Assembly: GCA_022452125.1 (NCBI GenBank)
Contig: JAKURJ010000001.1
Location: 1-47,035, forward strand
Length of the DNA stretch: 47,035 bases
Reading direction: 5' to 3'
From: Candidatus Poseidoniaceae archaeon
GTDB taxonomy: Archaea; Thermoplasmatota; Poseidoniia; Poseidoniales; Poseidoniaceae
In this document: positions 3,834 to 7,263 of the stretch, one piece after another
Numbering within the stretch: the stretch's first letter is position 1
Layout of the letters: every line of letters starts with the position of its first letter
The notes under the pieces: model-generated
Told to the model about the DNA's origin: nothing
The model's database searches: none
The model's input: only the letters and a program-made list of their open reading frames with translations
Program-made: the position numbers and the translations under genes

Positions 3834-4856
3834 ATGGATTTGGTTCAGGCGGCCTGGATGATTCGAGATTTAGGCCAGCCAGTCAGCTCCATCGACTTAG
3901 AGGAAGACTCGATTATTGCCGGAGGCTGGGATGGTTCTCTGAAGATGTGGAATGGCGATGGTGACATTCTTTGGTCTGCTCAATGTGAAGACAGAATTGA
4001 GGCAATCATCCGAATTGGGGAATTGGTAGTAGTGACTTCTGGCCTGCACATTACTTGTGTAAAATCGGGCGAAATTCTTTGGAGTAATGCATTGGAAGGC
4101 TCAGCTGATTTACTTGCATTCTATGACAACAAGGTCATTGCAACATCTAGCGTTTATGATATTGAACATGGTGATTTCATGGAAAGTGCATTATGGCAAT
4201 TTTCAATAGATGGGGAATTGATTGAAGTTACACGTATGGATGAAAGACCATGGTTTTTGCATTCAAATGAAAATCTAATTTTGGCACTTGGTCGGCCAAG
4301 GTGTGGACTTTTGGTTGACGGGGAACACAGAGAATTACCTAGCACTTCACCGGTTATGTGTGGTCTGTCAGGGCGAGAGAATATTTTGTTCGGTCATGCA
4401 GACGGAACAGTATCATCATTCAATGGCGATCAAATATGCAAAGAATCCACTTCAATCGAATCAATGACCTGTATCGAGCAAGGCTTTGTTGCTGCATTGG
4501 ATAACGGAGACCTAGTCGCTAGAACCCCAAGCTCAGTTCAGATTTGGACAGCTAGTGGCCCTCAAGTTACAACTCAAGTTGCAGGTTTTGATGATATGCA
4601 TTGGTGTGGGCGGTGGGATTCTATTCGTGGATATCTGGAAGTGAGGGCTAGTTCAGGCGAACTGATAGTTTCAACAGAAACTAGTCGTTCTAGGGTTTCT
4701 GATTATTCAGAAAATCGAATCGCTTTTGGATTTGAGGATGGCCAAATCTTGGTCTGGGAAAGAGAATTATTTCAACGTCGCTCAAATCAGGAGAATGGCG
4801 AGGAAAATAGTAGAAATTCTGCCCTCGCCGCTAGGCTCAGATCTTTGCGAAAATAG
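3834..4856 (+). CDS. beta-propeller (WD40/PQQ-like repeat) protein
   Basis: It shows repeated motifs of the type GGWDGSLKMWNGDGDILW, HADGTVSSFNGD and FEDGQILVWE. The function is unknown. Confidence 0.5.
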   Translation: MDLVQAAWMIRDLGQPVSSIDLEEDSIIAGGWDGSLKMWNGDGDILWSAQCEDRIEAIIRIGELVVVTSGLHITCVKSGEILWSNALEGSADLLAFYDNKVIATSSVYDIEHGDFMESALWQFSIDGELIEVTRMDERPWFLHSNENLILALGRPRCGLLVDGEHRELPSTSPVMCGLSGRENILFGHADGTVSSFNGDQICKESTSIESMTCIEQGFVAALDNGDLVARTPSSVQIWTASGPQVTTQVAGFDDMHWCGRWDSIRGYLEVRASSGELIVSTETSRSRVSDYSENRIAFGFEDGQILVWERELFQRRSNQENGEENSRNSALAARLRSLRK

Positions 4857-4858
4857 TG

Positions 4859-4867
4859 TTATTTATT
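4859..4867 (+). promoter_or_regulatory. candidate archaeal TATA-like box for the downstream structured RNA
   Basis: TTATTTATT lies directly after the upstream stop codon and about 25 nt before position ~4890. A second A/T box, AAATATT at 4896-4902, would instead place the start near 4925. This is positional reasoning only. Confidence 0.2.
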
Positions 4868-5302
4868 GCACAAAATCTCCATTGGAAGCAGTGGAAATAT
4901 TGCTCGCAACCCCCCATTTCCGGTGGAAAAGGGCCGAAATAAGCGTAAAGTTTATTTGCCTCCTCCCCACAAGGAGAAAGTGCCGCTCCACAAGGAGTGG
5001 TGGAGGACTTCCTCGGAAGGCCTCCGGGACCCTTGCCAACCGGCCTGCTCAAACCGAGCAAAGTGTTGGTCACAAACTCTGGAGACAGAGCAAGTGAGGC
5101 GCCAGGGAAGATACGGACTTTTCGGAGACCGTAAGTTCCCCCGCCCACAGGATGACTCCAAGCTTCGGCAAAGAGTCAACCACACAACCCTCGGGAAGTG
5201 TGGTACAGGGAGGGCTGCAACCTAGTTGCAGAAGTACCAACAACTGTGCATCGCCGGTAGGAGTGGCAGTAACAGTTCTTCGGGACAACCTCTGTCACAA
5301 AT

Positions 5303-5545
5303 AACGGCACGGCGAAACCGAGCCAGGAAAGCGACCTTCGGGAAGCAGAACTGAAAACGGACGCCACGGACGGTAACCGCGCCACCTGCTTCTTCGGAAG
5401 CAGGTGGAAACGGACCTCCACGTCGAAACCGAATCTGAAGCTCGCTTCAGAAAACGGACGACACGCCGGATCGAACAGGAACACTTCGGTGGGAATGCAA
5501 GAAACGGCAACCGGTAGAGAAGAAGGCGACCTTCGGGAAGCACGA
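5303..5545 (+). repeat. quasi-periodic array of ~50-nt two-hairpin modules inside the structured RNA
   Basis: AACGG(A/C) recurs at 5303, 5356, 5409, 5453 and 5503, with spacings of 53, 53, 44 and 50 nt. Each copy is followed by a small hairpin and then a YUCG-capped hairpin. The 17-mer GCGACCTTCGGGAAGCA is identical at 5331-5347 and 5526-5542. Confidence 0.55.
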
Positions 5546-5795
5546 ATCGATACCACCCTGGGAGCTAACCACTTCGGTGGAAGGTGAACAGAAACCCGGC
5601 CGCTGGGAAGAAGGCGTCTTGGCAACAAGGCGTCAACGATCTGGAAGATACTCCTCGGAGTAGACGAAGGTGACGACGACCCGGCAGCCACCAGCGGAGG
5701 CTGGCAAGGGGGCGGATATCCCACCCGGATGAAACCCCCTTGCCAGTTCTCCCATCCTGCTCTCACAGGTAAACGGGTGCCAGTGCGTTCCGCTT

Positions 5796-5817
5796 ATGAC
5801 TGTTAAGGGTCATTTTT
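5796..5817 (+). terminator. hairpin plus T5 tract, candidate 3' end of the structured RNA
   Basis: ATGAC (5796-5800) pairs with GTCAT (5809-5813), which runs into TTTTT (5813-5817). Oligo-T is the usual archaeal termination signal. The tract is T-rich only on the + strand. Confidence 0.35.
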
Positions 5818-5844
5818 CATCTTACAACCACTTTTGACTAGTGA

Positions 5845-7263
5845 TTAATTTGAGCCAGTCATTTCCTCTGGTCTAACCCACTGGTCAAACTCTTCATTGC
5901 TTAGATAGCCTAGTTCAAGAGCTGCTTCTCTAAGAGTAGTGCCCTCTTCGTGAGCCTTTTTTGCAATCTTTGCAGCTTTGTCATAACCGATATGATTGTT
6001 CAACGCTGTTACTAACATCAACGAATTTTCCAAATGATTCTTGATCATTCCTTCATTGGGCTCAATCCCTTCAACACATTTTGTTCTGAATGCTCGCATT
6101 GAGTCAGACAGAATCCTTACACTGTGCAATAAGTTGTGAATCATCATCGGTTTGAATACATTTAATTCGAAATTTCCTTGGCTTCCACCCACTGTTATTG
6201 CGGTGTGGTTACCCATTACTTGACAACAAACCATTGTCATCGCTTCTGATTGAGTTGGGTTGACTTTACCCGGCATAATCGATGAGCCTGGTTCATTTGC
6301 CGGTAGTGAGAGTTCCTGTAATCCACACCTTGGTCCTGAACCTAGCCACCTAATGTCGTTGGCAATTTTCATCAGACTTACCGCTAATGTGTTCAGTGCA
6401 CCACTTGCGGCAACAATCGCATCGTGTGCTGCTAATTGCGAGAACTTATTTTGTGCTGAAACGAATGGAAGATTGGTTTTCAACGCAATTGCAGATGCAA
6501 CTCGATTTGCGAATTCTGGGTGGGTGTTCAACCCGGTCCCAACTGCAGTTCCACCTAATGCTAATTCATGCAAGTCTTCCAAAGCGAACTCAACTCTTCG
6601 TATATCTGCGTCTAATTGAGCAACCCACCCACTCGCTTCTTGTCCAAGTGTGAGAGGTACAGCATCCATTAGATGCGTTCTGCCTATTTTCACAATATCT
6701 GACCACTCATCTGATTTTTTTGCAAGAGCATCCCTTAGTAAAACCAAACTAGGGATTAGCTCGCTAGTAAATGCTTCAGCGCTTGCAATATGCATAGCTG
6801 TAGGGAAAGTATCATTCGATGACTGAGCACGATTCACGTGGTCATTTGGATGAACCGGGGACTTGGACCCAAGAACTCCGCCAGCCATTTCAATGGCCCT
6901 ATTTGCAATGACTTCATTGGTATTCATGTTAGATTGTGTACCGGAACCCGTTTGCCAAACCCTCAGCGGAAAATGGTCATCTAACTCCCCATTGATTACT
7001 TCTTCAGCAGCAGAAATAATGAGTTTTGCAACCTTTCCATCTAATTGTCCTAAATCAGAATTAACCTTCGCTGCAGCCTGTTTTAGTATGCCAAAGGCAC
7101 GTATGACACCTCTTGGCATTTTGTCATCACCAATATCGAAGTTGATTAGAGACCTAGCGGTCTGACATCCGTAGTACCGGTCGGCAGGAACTTCCAGTTC
7201 ACCCATGGTGTCAGCTTCTATTCGTACCTCTCCCATGTACATACGGCATAGCCGACCGTCCAT
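5845..7263 (-). CDS. fumC: fumarate hydratase, class II
   Basis: It has the [16 protein letters not shown] signature and colinear fumarase/aspartase family motifs ([17 protein letters not shown]). The true start may be the downstream MGEVRIE. Confidence 0.9.

Follow-up and report, generated by a model that had tools for sequence, protein, structure and literature searches.

The RNA locus, its promoter and its ends

The window analysed is a stretch of 47,035 nucleotides from a Candidatus Poseidoniaceae archaeon (contig JAKURJ010000001.1 of assembly GCA_022452125.1). Within it, an ORF for a beta-propeller protein (3834-4856, + strand) and the fumC gene (5845-7263, - strand) converge, their ends being those given in a preliminary description of this DNA. 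The upstream protein is an uncharacterised PQQ/WD-like propeller specific to Marine Group II (MGII, Poseidoniales). The segment between both genes is a U-poor, G+C-rich island, with an AT skew of up to +0.46 and a G+C content of 0.56-0.605 across positions 4900-5799; the flanks have 0.37-0.47, and all the other 1-kb bins of the window 0.41-0.50. The hand counts of G+C made earlier were exact in three cases (36/60, 21/60 and 22/60), and the fourth one, given as 34/60, was recounted as 35/60.

The preliminary description had proposed that this island carries a large structured RNA of no recognisable class on the + strand, a proposal upheld by the covariation, the conserved synteny, the dedicated promoter and the lack of any Rfam match. 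The segment from approximately 4982 to 5817 (+) is a single-copy chromosomal gene for a large and highly structured non-coding RNA, present once in the window. Folding of the entire segment gave -385 kcal/mol, with z = -8.6 relative to shuffles on the + strand vs. -3.8 on the - strand, and the refined transcript (4981-5817) gave z = -8.46 on the + strand. The + strand, already taken as the functional one, is also indicated by the fixed G.U pairs and the YUCG loops, which would be meaningless on the other strand. The features of the locus are collected in Table 1.

Table 1. Coordinates of the observed and predicted features at the RNA locus, in window positions
Feature	Position	Strand	Remarks
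Conserved upstream boxes	4881-4931	.	Candidate regulator-binding sites, probably outside the RNA: ATTGGAAG 4882-4889; CAGTGGAAAT 4889-4898; inverted ATTTCCGG 4916-4923; GGTGGAAAAG 4922-4931
BRE/TATA-like archaeal promoter element AAAGTTTATTT	4947-4957	+	TTTA begins 31 nt upstream of the predicted start G4982
Structured ncRNA, predicted transcript of about 836 nt	4982-5817	+	Folding z, consensus pairs, no coding signal
P1, 5'-terminal hairpin GCCGCUCC-ACAA-GGAGUGGU	4982-5001	+	Nearly invariant, two fixed G.U pairs
P2, hairpin GGAGGACUUC-CUCG-GAAGGCCUCC	5002-5025	+	Covarying
Closing helix, 5' strand GACCCUUG	5028-5035	+	Proposed partner 5804-5811, tentative
5' domain	5035-5308	+	Hairpins and nested helices (helices 5-17), mostly with compensatory changes; holds invariant ACAGGGAGGGC; helices 5046-5060, 5070-5097, 5098-5145, 5146-5248 (around 5156-5175, 5180-5203, 5215-5231) and 5253-5308 (enclosing 5263-5298)
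GUUGG	5065-5069	+	Predicted long-range pairing with CCAGC 5691-5695, linking 5' and 3' domains (consensus fold)
Three tandem hairpin modules	5311-5461	+	M1 5311-5365; M2 5368-5419; M3 5422-5461
3' domain	5598-5689	+	Helix GGCCGCUGGG/CCCGGCAGCC around hairpins 5613-5634 and 5648-5663
3' terminal module, GCGGAG-long hairpin-CUCCCA	5694-5754	+	Whole-family
Closing helix, 3' strand UAAGGGUC	5804-5811	+	Alternative: 3' arm of small hairpin 5796-5813
T5 tract	5813-5817	+	Likely archaeal termination signal; first run of at least five T after the promoter

Regarding the 5' end, the RNA had been thought to begin at 4890, which had to be corrected, as the region 4890-4980 consists of GTGGAAA-type boxes plus the BRE/TATA element and is not RNA. 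Transcription most likely starts at G4982. The spacing between the element (R)AAAG(N)TTTAW and the 5' hairpin is the same in the window as in the loci L001, L005, L006 and L010, all found by synteny. The same spacing was detected in all the loci retrieved from metagenomes, where it is circular, as the retrieval pattern required TTTA. This pattern contained TTTA and P1, making the conservation of both partly circular in that set, in such a way that L001, L005, L006 and L010 are the only loci in which TTTA and P1 were confirmed independently. Both the spacing and the sequence match the established architecture of archaeal promoters. Upstream of this element, an inverted repeat CAGTGGAAAT...ATTTCC(R)CTG is common to the three subtypes of the RNA described below; L005, a locus retrieved through synteny and not through the pattern, has it as well.

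Regarding the 3' end, runs of T5 to T7 come after the conserved 3' strand in related RNAs, and as archaeal RNA polymerase is known to stop at oligo-T, termination at the T5 tract of the window is likely. The 3' end proposed earlier (5796-5817) combined this tract with a small hairpin; the tract stands as a plausible archaeal stop, but the hairpin is not conserved, since within subtype A the string RAGGG is kept and the AUGAC/GUCAU arms are not. Transcription of the RNA would be driven by a BRE/TATA promoter of its own (4947-4957) and end at the T5 tract (5813-5817), only about 28 nt from the convergent fumC stop and without overlapping this gene.

A previously undescribed RNA family of Marine Group II archaea

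The RNA belongs to a previously undescribed family found in many MGII archaea, the group to which the window itself was assigned through fumC neighbours. When the window RNA was compared by nhmmer with fumC loci, only its 5' ~150 nt were matched, in L001 and L006; the interior was too diverged for direct nhmmer, so homologues were retrieved through motifs and synteny. At least 125 loci carry the RNA, at least 89 of them full-length, forming at least 59 clusters at 97% identity and at least 32 at 90%. Public ocean metagenomes contain the family in abundance (at least 120 contigs). Full-length homologues range from 539 to 1254 nt and fall into three subtypes, one rich in UUCG, one with 70% purine (subtype B) and one with a duplicated domain, the window RNA being of subtype A. 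All of them share the 5' hairpins P1 and P2 and the GCGGAG-long hairpin-CUCCCA module, with a variable and modular interior. The richness in YUCG loops is confined to the subtype of the window, with 16 per kb compared to 4 per kb in the purine-rich one.

The gene order beta-propeller, RNA and convergent fumC was the same wherever a locus had sufficient flanking sequence, with one RNA copy per locus and down to 24% identity between the propeller proteins. The RNA was absent from this same neighbourhood in L008, L011 and L236-L241, where the genes abut or other CDS occupy the gap; the propeller gene and fumC are adjacent without the RNA in L008 and L011, and elsewhere the propeller gene has other downstream genes. 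Therefore, the RNA is either dispensable or relocated in some Poseidoniales and is not tied to the beta-propeller gene. A functional link between them was rejected, and their adjacency is explained by general synteny, since the propeller gene also occurs without the RNA.

The claim of novelty was borne out by the searches against known families, in which no Rfam 15 model reached its gathering score in the window. At E<=10, the region 4700-6000 gave just two matches, both at chance level: 6A (E=6.4), outside the RNA, and whalefall-1 (E=1.9), in the promoter and on the wrong strand. In seven loci covering all subtypes no Rfam model was matched at E<=1, including OLE, ROOL, GOLLD, HEARO and raiA. 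No tRNA or tmRNA was detected in the window by ARAGORN, and a full-text literature search returned no description of such an RNA. Neither phage records nor IMG/VR contained a match to the RNA. A short 5'-hairpin pattern gave 35 matches among viral contigs, all of them attributable to chance and without nhmmer similarity, and a stricter pattern gave none. The neighbours do not include reverse transcriptase, nuclease or transposase genes, the flanks being the beta-propeller gene and fumC. By eye, the internal loops did not fit the consensus of K-turns, C/D boxes or H/ACA RNAs, and neither SD/anti-SD nor tRNA-like readings fitted GCGGAG...CUCCCA.

Secondary structure and its conservation

The eight UUCG and four CUCG loops reported for the segment are exactly where they had been placed; a thirteenth YUCG loop (CUCG, 4903) falls beyond the limits of the RNA. 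Each of the 13 has at least 2 bp closing it, and nine have three or more contiguous pairs; in dinucleotide shuffles, loops so closed averaged 0.32 and never exceeded 3. Every helix listed earlier folds as described, including the perfect arms 5382-5392/5397-5407 and 5701-5712/5735-5746. The hairpin 5306-5324 also forms in the window sequence, but it is probably not the conserved fold, as positions 5318-5320 pair with 5358-5360 in the comparative structure, with compensatory changes in two sequences.

The same RNA is found in related genomes with its base pairs kept by compensatory changes, as expected for a structured RNA. For subtype A, the consensus comprises 161 pairs, with 95.9% of the cells paired vs. 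36-47% when the partners were slid. Double changes affected 66 of the 161 pairs (12-26 when slid), and the covariation score was 0.274 (0.05-0.08 when slid), the observed values being reached in none of 500 shuffles; these controls consist of shuffles and slid partners, without correction for phylogeny. In subtype C, 62 of the 342 consensus pairs were compensatory. The purine-rich subtype B surpassed shuffles in folding only by a small margin (z = -2.3), with a poor MAFFT-based consensus of 97 pairs. The shape of P2 and of the 3' module is retained between subtypes even though their sequences differ. Cross-subtype alignment with MAFFT and RNAalifold yielded only 13 pairs in the 3' domain and 8 in P1/P2; as such alignments were not structure-consistent, per-sequence folds and a hand-specified apical P2 stem were used instead.

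At the 5' end, P1 was 100% paired in 22 distinct 5' ends spanning all subtypes, and its variation was limited to one-sided C to U changes that produce G.U pairs. P2 showed compensatory changes in 5 of its 10 pairs within subtype A and in all four apical pairs across subtypes, and 31 distinct 5' ends fold alike. The closing helix formed by 5028-5035 and 5804-5811 is present in both the MFE and the centroid structures, and analogous end-closing pairs were seen in other subtypes (GGGCC/GGCCC and AGGCCCC/GGGGUCU). A family-wide test of the longest helix against shuffled tails was not significant (6.9 vs. 6.3 nt). Tentatively, 5804-5811 may pair with 5028-5035 and close the molecule. The GUUGG/CCAGC pairs (helix 6) are invariant in subtype A, so that covariation speaks neither for nor against them. 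Together, these two long-range pairings are predicted to bring both ends of the RNA close to each other.

The three tandem modules follow a common plan, closing stem-(A/U)AA-CCG-...YUCG hairpin...-AAA(A)-CGG-A-closing stem, with the repeated motif AAACCG...AAACGGAC and ACG linkers between them. This array is supported by the direct repeats D5 and D7, by the alignment of the modules and by compensatory changes in helices 18-23, and the number of modules varies among homologues (insertions in A4). In the 3' domain, the strings GGGAAGAAGGC, GUCAACGAUC and GGUGACGACGAC are conserved, and helices 26-30 contain 4, 5 and 5 compensatory pairs; its motif GGGAAG..GGC-hairpin-GUCAAC is recognisable in all subtypes.

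The 3' terminal module was found in at least 89 loci despite being absent from the search pattern. Its hairpin of 17 bp (5696-5712/5735-5752) encloses a smaller one (5717-5731) whose loop is C-rich, CUCCCA occupying 5749-5754, and the 27 distinct versions of the module all form the same long hairpin with differing stem sequences. Palindromes that could serve for dimerisation through this module (GGAUAUCC, AGAUCU and GAAGCUUC) were discarded, as subtype A itself does not conserve them and shuffled sequences have palindromes just as long.

Possible roles and relation to known large RNAs

A protein-coding segment, a decayed pseudogene or a G+C-rich mobile or viral remnant could be imagined from the atypical composition and from two ORFs of 196 aa (5176-5766, - strand) and 119 aa (4866-5225, + strand). 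These ORFs have no Pfam match, and the open frames are not conserved, with strand and frame shifting between homologues; several frames are open simultaneously as a consequence of the depletion of U. Substitutions lacked the codon periodicity expected of a coding region (181/183/182 variable columns by codon position), and gap runs were mostly not multiples of three (121/94/23 by length mod 3). With strong covariation, no phage or viral match, a single copy and a fixed chromosomal position besides, this reading is already contradicted and has practically no probability left. That the RNA is not an independent gene but a structured 3' UTR of the beta-propeller mRNA, or a cis or antisense element acting on fumC, would fit its strict location between both genes wherever it is found, its orientation, the same as that of the upstream gene, and its end so close to the fumC stop. 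Against this, the BRE/TATA element is conserved at a fixed distance from the invariant 5' hairpin, T-rich tracts directly follow the upstream stop codon in many loci, fumC is not overlapped, and the propeller gene occurs beside fumC without the RNA (L008, L011) or with other genes downstream, all of which makes such a role very unlikely. The single copy, the own promoter and the predicted meeting of the 5' and 3' regions also recall a housekeeping RNA, and the string ACAGAAACCCGGC (5584-5596) superficially resembles the CR-V/P4 strand of RNase P RNA (E. coli M1). A highly diverged universal archaeal RNA, either RNase P RNA or SRP 7S RNA, is nevertheless extremely unlikely: neither RNase P (RF00373) nor SRP (Archaea_SRP) was matched at E<=10, nor were they in the other subtypes, the size of 0.54-1.25 kb is far above that of both archaeal RNAs, and some Poseidoniales lack the RNA at the locus. 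Moreover, the CR-V-like string is missing from subtypes B and C, and its CCCGGC pairs locally with 5677-5689 in a covarying helix (helix 26) and not as a P4-like pseudoknot, so that with no CM match the resemblance was rejected; and the P1/P2 loops vary, unlike those of the SRP Alu domain.

Two further readings concern what a stand-alone RNA of this kind would do. As a ribozyme, its invariant 5'/3' core would be the active site and its periphery would have a stabilising role, as in RNase P RNA or group I/II introns; a core that is conserved while the periphery varies strongly (0.54-1.25 kb) and the invariant junction strings GCGGAG, CUCCCA, ACAGGGAGGGC and GGUGACGACGAC are in line with this, but no known ribozyme model matches, there is no evident substrate, splice junction or processing site, and some relatives have no such RNA at the locus, leaving this reading improbable. 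Bacterial ornate RNAs form RNA-only multimers via A-minor contacts and kissing loops (Kretsch et al., 2025; PMC12286853), and the MGII RNA could likewise be a protein-free homo-oligomer, a dimer or a cage like those of OLE, ROOL and GOLLD, held together by A-minor or kissing contacts through its A-rich loops and tetraloops. The shared size class, the many tetraloop-capped hairpins, the abundant unpaired A and the repeated modules with A-rich internal loops speak for it; the lack of homology to the OLE, ROOL and GOLLD families, and of any conserved self-complementary sequence at the apex of the 3' module in the palindrome search, speak against it, and we consider it unlikely.

Taken as a whole, the data are very probably best explained by a new structured-RNA gene of MGII with its own predicted promoter and T5 stop. 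Judging from the architecture, the product would be a stable architectural RNA, perhaps most likely a ribonucleoprotein scaffold, a role proposed with low certainty. The sequence-invariant 5'/3' core could be its functional or recognition centre, and the variable, duplicating hairpin modules might be structural struts or repeated docking sites. A bolder reading, conceivable though short of an even chance, is that of a first large ornate class of archaeal RNA, an MGII-specific machine of 0.5-1.3 kb with a catalytic or recognition core formed by its 5' and 3' parts and growing by duplication of modules and domains; such a machine might be a ribozyme, or the core of a ribonucleoprotein or of an RNA-only assembly.

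To our knowledge, large intricate non-ribosomal RNAs form few classes (RNase P, group I/II introns, tmRNA, OLE, GOLLD, ROOL, HEARO and raiA), and we know of no other large ornate class from archaea. Each of the known large classes has revealed unusual biochemistry. A comparable case is OLE (RF01071), also a single-copy chromosomal RNA (~0.6-0.8 kb) with many short hairpins and invariant stretches between covarying helices, which functions as a ribonucleoprotein and dimerises (PMC12286853). However, the two do not match in sequence or structure, and OLE is found in Firmicutes beside its partner gene oapA, whereas the MGII RNA belongs to archaea and no partner gene could be demonstrated for it. 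ROOL and GOLLD, bacterial or phage RNAs that form RNA-only nanocages, are similar in size class, ornate multiple hairpins, variable regions and unpaired adenosines; they do not match the MGII RNA either, and are often associated with prophages or plasmids, near tRNAs, in contrast to its chromosomal and syntenic location, its absence from viral collections and its lack of a conserved kissing palindrome. HEARO, the omega RNAs of the IS605 family and other element-borne guide RNAs are likewise large, structured and found through comparative genomics, but they lie beside IscB/TnpB nuclease genes in multiple mobile copies, whereas the MGII RNA occurs once, at a constant position with neither nuclease nor transposase genes beside it, and matches no Rfam model. 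Archaeal RNase P and SRP RNAs share with it their stand-alone Pol transcription and a conserved core with a variable periphery; the MGII RNA is two to four times larger, differs in helix topology and is not universal in its order. Finally, the Hgc RNAs, reportedly described by Klein, Misulovin and Eddy in 2002 as G+C-rich ncRNA islands of AT-rich archaea, were also detected as a G+C-rich island in an archaeal genome of lower G+C, but they are of ~100-200 nt (H/ACA, C/D and HgcC families) and included in Rfam, and none of them matches the MGII RNA.

In the surface ocean, no planktonic archaea are more abundant than Marine Group II, which are uncultured and known mostly through the annotation of protein-coding genes. 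If the bolder reading were true, a globally dominant marine order would harbour the first archaeal class of large ornate RNAs, evolving by duplication of modules and domains. At this locus, the annotation of MGII genomes also has a conserved blind spot, and spurious ORFs will probably be predicted on the U-poor strand. The RNA is open to synthesis and to cryo-EM or probing without culturing its host, and the three subtypes constitute a natural comparative series for structure determination.

Structure and coding potential of the RNA

The region between the propeller gene and fumC is well supported as encoding a large structured noncoding RNA of a new family, found in Marine Group II (MGII) archaea and served by a promoter of its own. 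All 12 UUCG or CUCG (YUCG) tetraloops in the preliminary description are correctly placed, and every helix it lists was reproduced on folding; of its four hand counts of G+C, one differs by one and the others are exact. G+C at 4900-5799 is 0.56-0.605, against 0.37-0.47 in adjoining DNA, and the RNA segment is the sole G+C-rich kilobase of the 47-kb window; its + strand is rich in A (0.27) and poor in U (0.15). Closure by three or more contiguous pairs is seen in nine YUCG tetraloops (dinucleotide shuffles: mean 0.32, maximum 3). The folding-energy z-score is -8.6 on the + strand vs. -3.8 on the - strand. The fixed G.U pairs and YUCG loops identify + as the functional strand, as first proposed. 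The anatomy is summarized in the table.

Features of the RNA locus in the window
Feature	Position	Strand	Remark
Beta-propeller ORF	3834-4856	+	340 aa, upstream of RNA
GTGGAAA-type boxes	4881-4931		three direct copies plus inverted ATTTCCGG (4916-4923); upstream of RNA promoter
BRE/TATA	4947-4957	+	AAAGTTTATTT; TTTA 31 nt before G4982, first P1 base
P1	4982-5001	+	5'-terminal hairpin
P2	5002-5025	+	second hairpin
5' domain	to 5308	+	nested helices
Closing helix (tentative)	5028-5035 with 5804-5811		GACCCUUG with UAAGGGUC
Long-range helix	5065-5069 with 5691-5695	+	predicted, invariant
Antisense ORF	5176-5766	-	196 aa, GTG start, crosses RNA
Three tandem modules	5311-5365, 5368-5419, 5422-5461	+	stem-AAA-CCG-...YUCG hairpin...-AAAA-CGG-A-stem
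Further hairpins	between tandem modules and 3' domain	+	
3' domain	5598-5689	+	
Terminal module	5694-5754	+	
T run	5813-5817		first run of at least five T 3' of promoter
fumC	5845-7263	-	Lyase_1 match (1.4e-110), plus FumaraseC_C

A consensus for subtype A, the form in the window, was obtained with RNAalifold on twelve sequences, and pairing was then counted independently, with partners slid by 1-3 columns as controls. Compensatory double changes were found in 66 of the 161 consensus pairs (12-26 with partners slid), 95.9% of cells formed standard pairs (36-47%) and the covariation score was 0.274 (0.05-0.08), values that none of 500 shuffles reached. For subtype C, the consensus from six sequences has 342 pairs, of which 62 show compensatory changes. 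Across subtypes, P1 and P2 are kept in 31 distinct 5' ends, with all four apical pairs of P2 covarying, and 27 distinct versions of the 3' module adopt one long-hairpin fold with differing stem sequences. P1 is essentially invariant in sequence, including two fixed G.U pairs, which points to sequence-specific recognition rather than to pairing alone.

The absence of a credible CDS was borne out, and a coding reading was rejected: variable columns are evenly spread by position modulo 3 (181/183/182), gap runs by length modulo 3 number 121/94/23, the longest open frames shift strand and frame among homologues, and the window's ORFs in the RNA region have no Pfam match. As the + strand is U-poor, multiple - strand frames are open together, and gene callers are likely to list such antisense frames as hypothetical proteins in MGII genomes.

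Promoter and probable ends

When the ends of the noncoding G+C-rich stretches also present between the propeller gene and fumC in loci L001, L006 and L010 were aligned, three conserved features emerged: a 5' hairpin (UGCYGCUYC-N3-4-GGAGUGGUG), an upstream BRE/TATA-like AAAG(N)TTTAW whose TTTA precedes the UGCYGC motif by about 26 nt, and a 3' element (GCGGAG-hairpin-CUCCCA). The BRE/TATA-to-P1 arrangement recurs in loci found by synteny alone. Among the upstream boxes, the inverted copy pairs as an inverted repeat with CAGTGGAAAT (4889-4898); this repeat, CAGTGGAAAT...ATTTCC(R)CTG, is kept in all subtypes and looks like a transcription-factor site, which would imply that RNA expression is regulated. 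Because the BRE/TATA and the boxes lie there, 4890-4980 is promoter/regulatory DNA and not, as had been proposed for 4890 onwards, part of the RNA. The structured RNA itself stands; we infer from the sequence that it starts at G4982 and stops near 5813-5817.

The T5 tract is a plausible 3' end, as suggested earlier; related RNAs carry runs of T5-T7 after the conserved 3' strand. In both MFE and centroid structures the predicted closing helix seals the molecule, and subtypes B and C have analogous complementary pairs; a family-wide shuffle test was not significant, so that this helix, and hence the exact 3' end, are tentative. Subtypes B and C carry a conserved UAUCAAUCAUUGCGGAGC-N4-GCUCCGC hairpin 3' of the RNA core, before fumC (L010 5400-5480 -, L186, L175, L161 and others), which could be the true RNA 3' end or a terminator common to the convergent genes; the equivalent site in subtype A reads UUAUGACUGUURAGGG.

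Family, subtypes and proposed mode of action

Conservation in related genomes was confirmed, with compensatory base-pair changes. L005 and L007 have the RNA as well, and at least 120 marine metagenome contigs match a TATA plus 5'-hairpin pattern, giving at least 125 loci in total with the genome loci. At least 89 span both the 5' hairpin and the 3' element, the latter having played no part in the search pattern; these full-length loci form at least 59 clusters at 97% identity and at least 32 at 90%, with RNAs of 539-1254 nt among the matches listed.

The family combines a sequence-invariant 5'/3' core with a periphery varying more than 2-fold in size; whole modules are gained or lost, and repeated modules carry identical A-rich internal loops. 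Subtype A (at least 21 full-length loci, 693-826 nt) has balanced G/C and 16 YUCG per kb. Subtype B (at least 56, 539-884 nt) is about 70% purine with just 8-12% U and 4 YUCG per kb, which is out of the ordinary for a structured RNA. Subtype-B folding scarcely exceeds shuffles (L010, z = -2.3); its members (L006, L010 5473-6181 -, L148 and others) are rich in GGAAGGGGAAGG and GAACCGGACGCAAGGAAGG repeats and keep the 5'/3' core. In subtype C (at least 12, 909-1254 nt) a 3' domain of about 330 nt is tandemly duplicated, giving a second GCGGAG...CUCCCA module, as in L001 2386-3628 (-), L159, L193, L195 and L209. A 100-N stretch within the L001 repeat looks like a scaffolding gap due to the tandem repeat.

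As claimed, the RNA matches no known class: Rfam 15 (4227 models) gave nothing at gathering score across the 47-kb window and, at E<=10 in 4700-6000, just two chance-level matches, each either lying off the RNA or on the opposite strand, with no match at E<=1 in seven loci spanning all subtypes. ARAGORN found no tRNA or tmRNA in the window, and a literature search returned no description of the RNA. The string at 5584-5596 superficially resembles the RNase P CR-V strand; this reading was rejected, the string being accounted for by a local, covarying helix.

The RNA is alike in style to the bacterial ornate RNAs and a member of none. From its architecture we favour, with low certainty, a role as a stable architectural or RNP RNA. 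An RNA-only multimer, the form shown for OLE, ROOL and GOLLD (PMC12286853), is a live alternative to such a role, as is a ribozyme.

Locus, neighbours and host

The order propeller gene, RNA, convergent fumC holds in all loci with sufficient flank, even as propeller identity drops to 24%. The element occurs once in the window and has no match in phage records or IMG/VR. At the syntenic site of some Poseidoniales it is missing: the propeller gene abuts fumC in L008 (5380-6480), a small membrane-protein-like ORF separates them in L011 (5371-5781), and unrelated genes follow the propeller gene in three other lineages (L236-L241). Judged at this locus, the RNA would thus be lineage-variable or relocatable. 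The upstream protein is a PQQ/WD-like propeller, uncharacterised and restricted to MGII; as it occurs without the RNA in other loci, it cannot be counted on as a partner.

The closest relatives of the window's fumC protein are from MGII (Poseidoniaceae and Thalassarchaeaceae MAGs, 73-82% identity). MGII fumC also shares 63-71% identity with its counterparts in many unrelated phyla of bacteria (L012-L080: Nitrospinota, Acidobacteriota, Verrucomicrobiota and others), suggesting either a very conserved enzyme or exchange between domains. The window also has several very large ORFs (1266-1347 aa), including one that carries CARDB and PPC domains.
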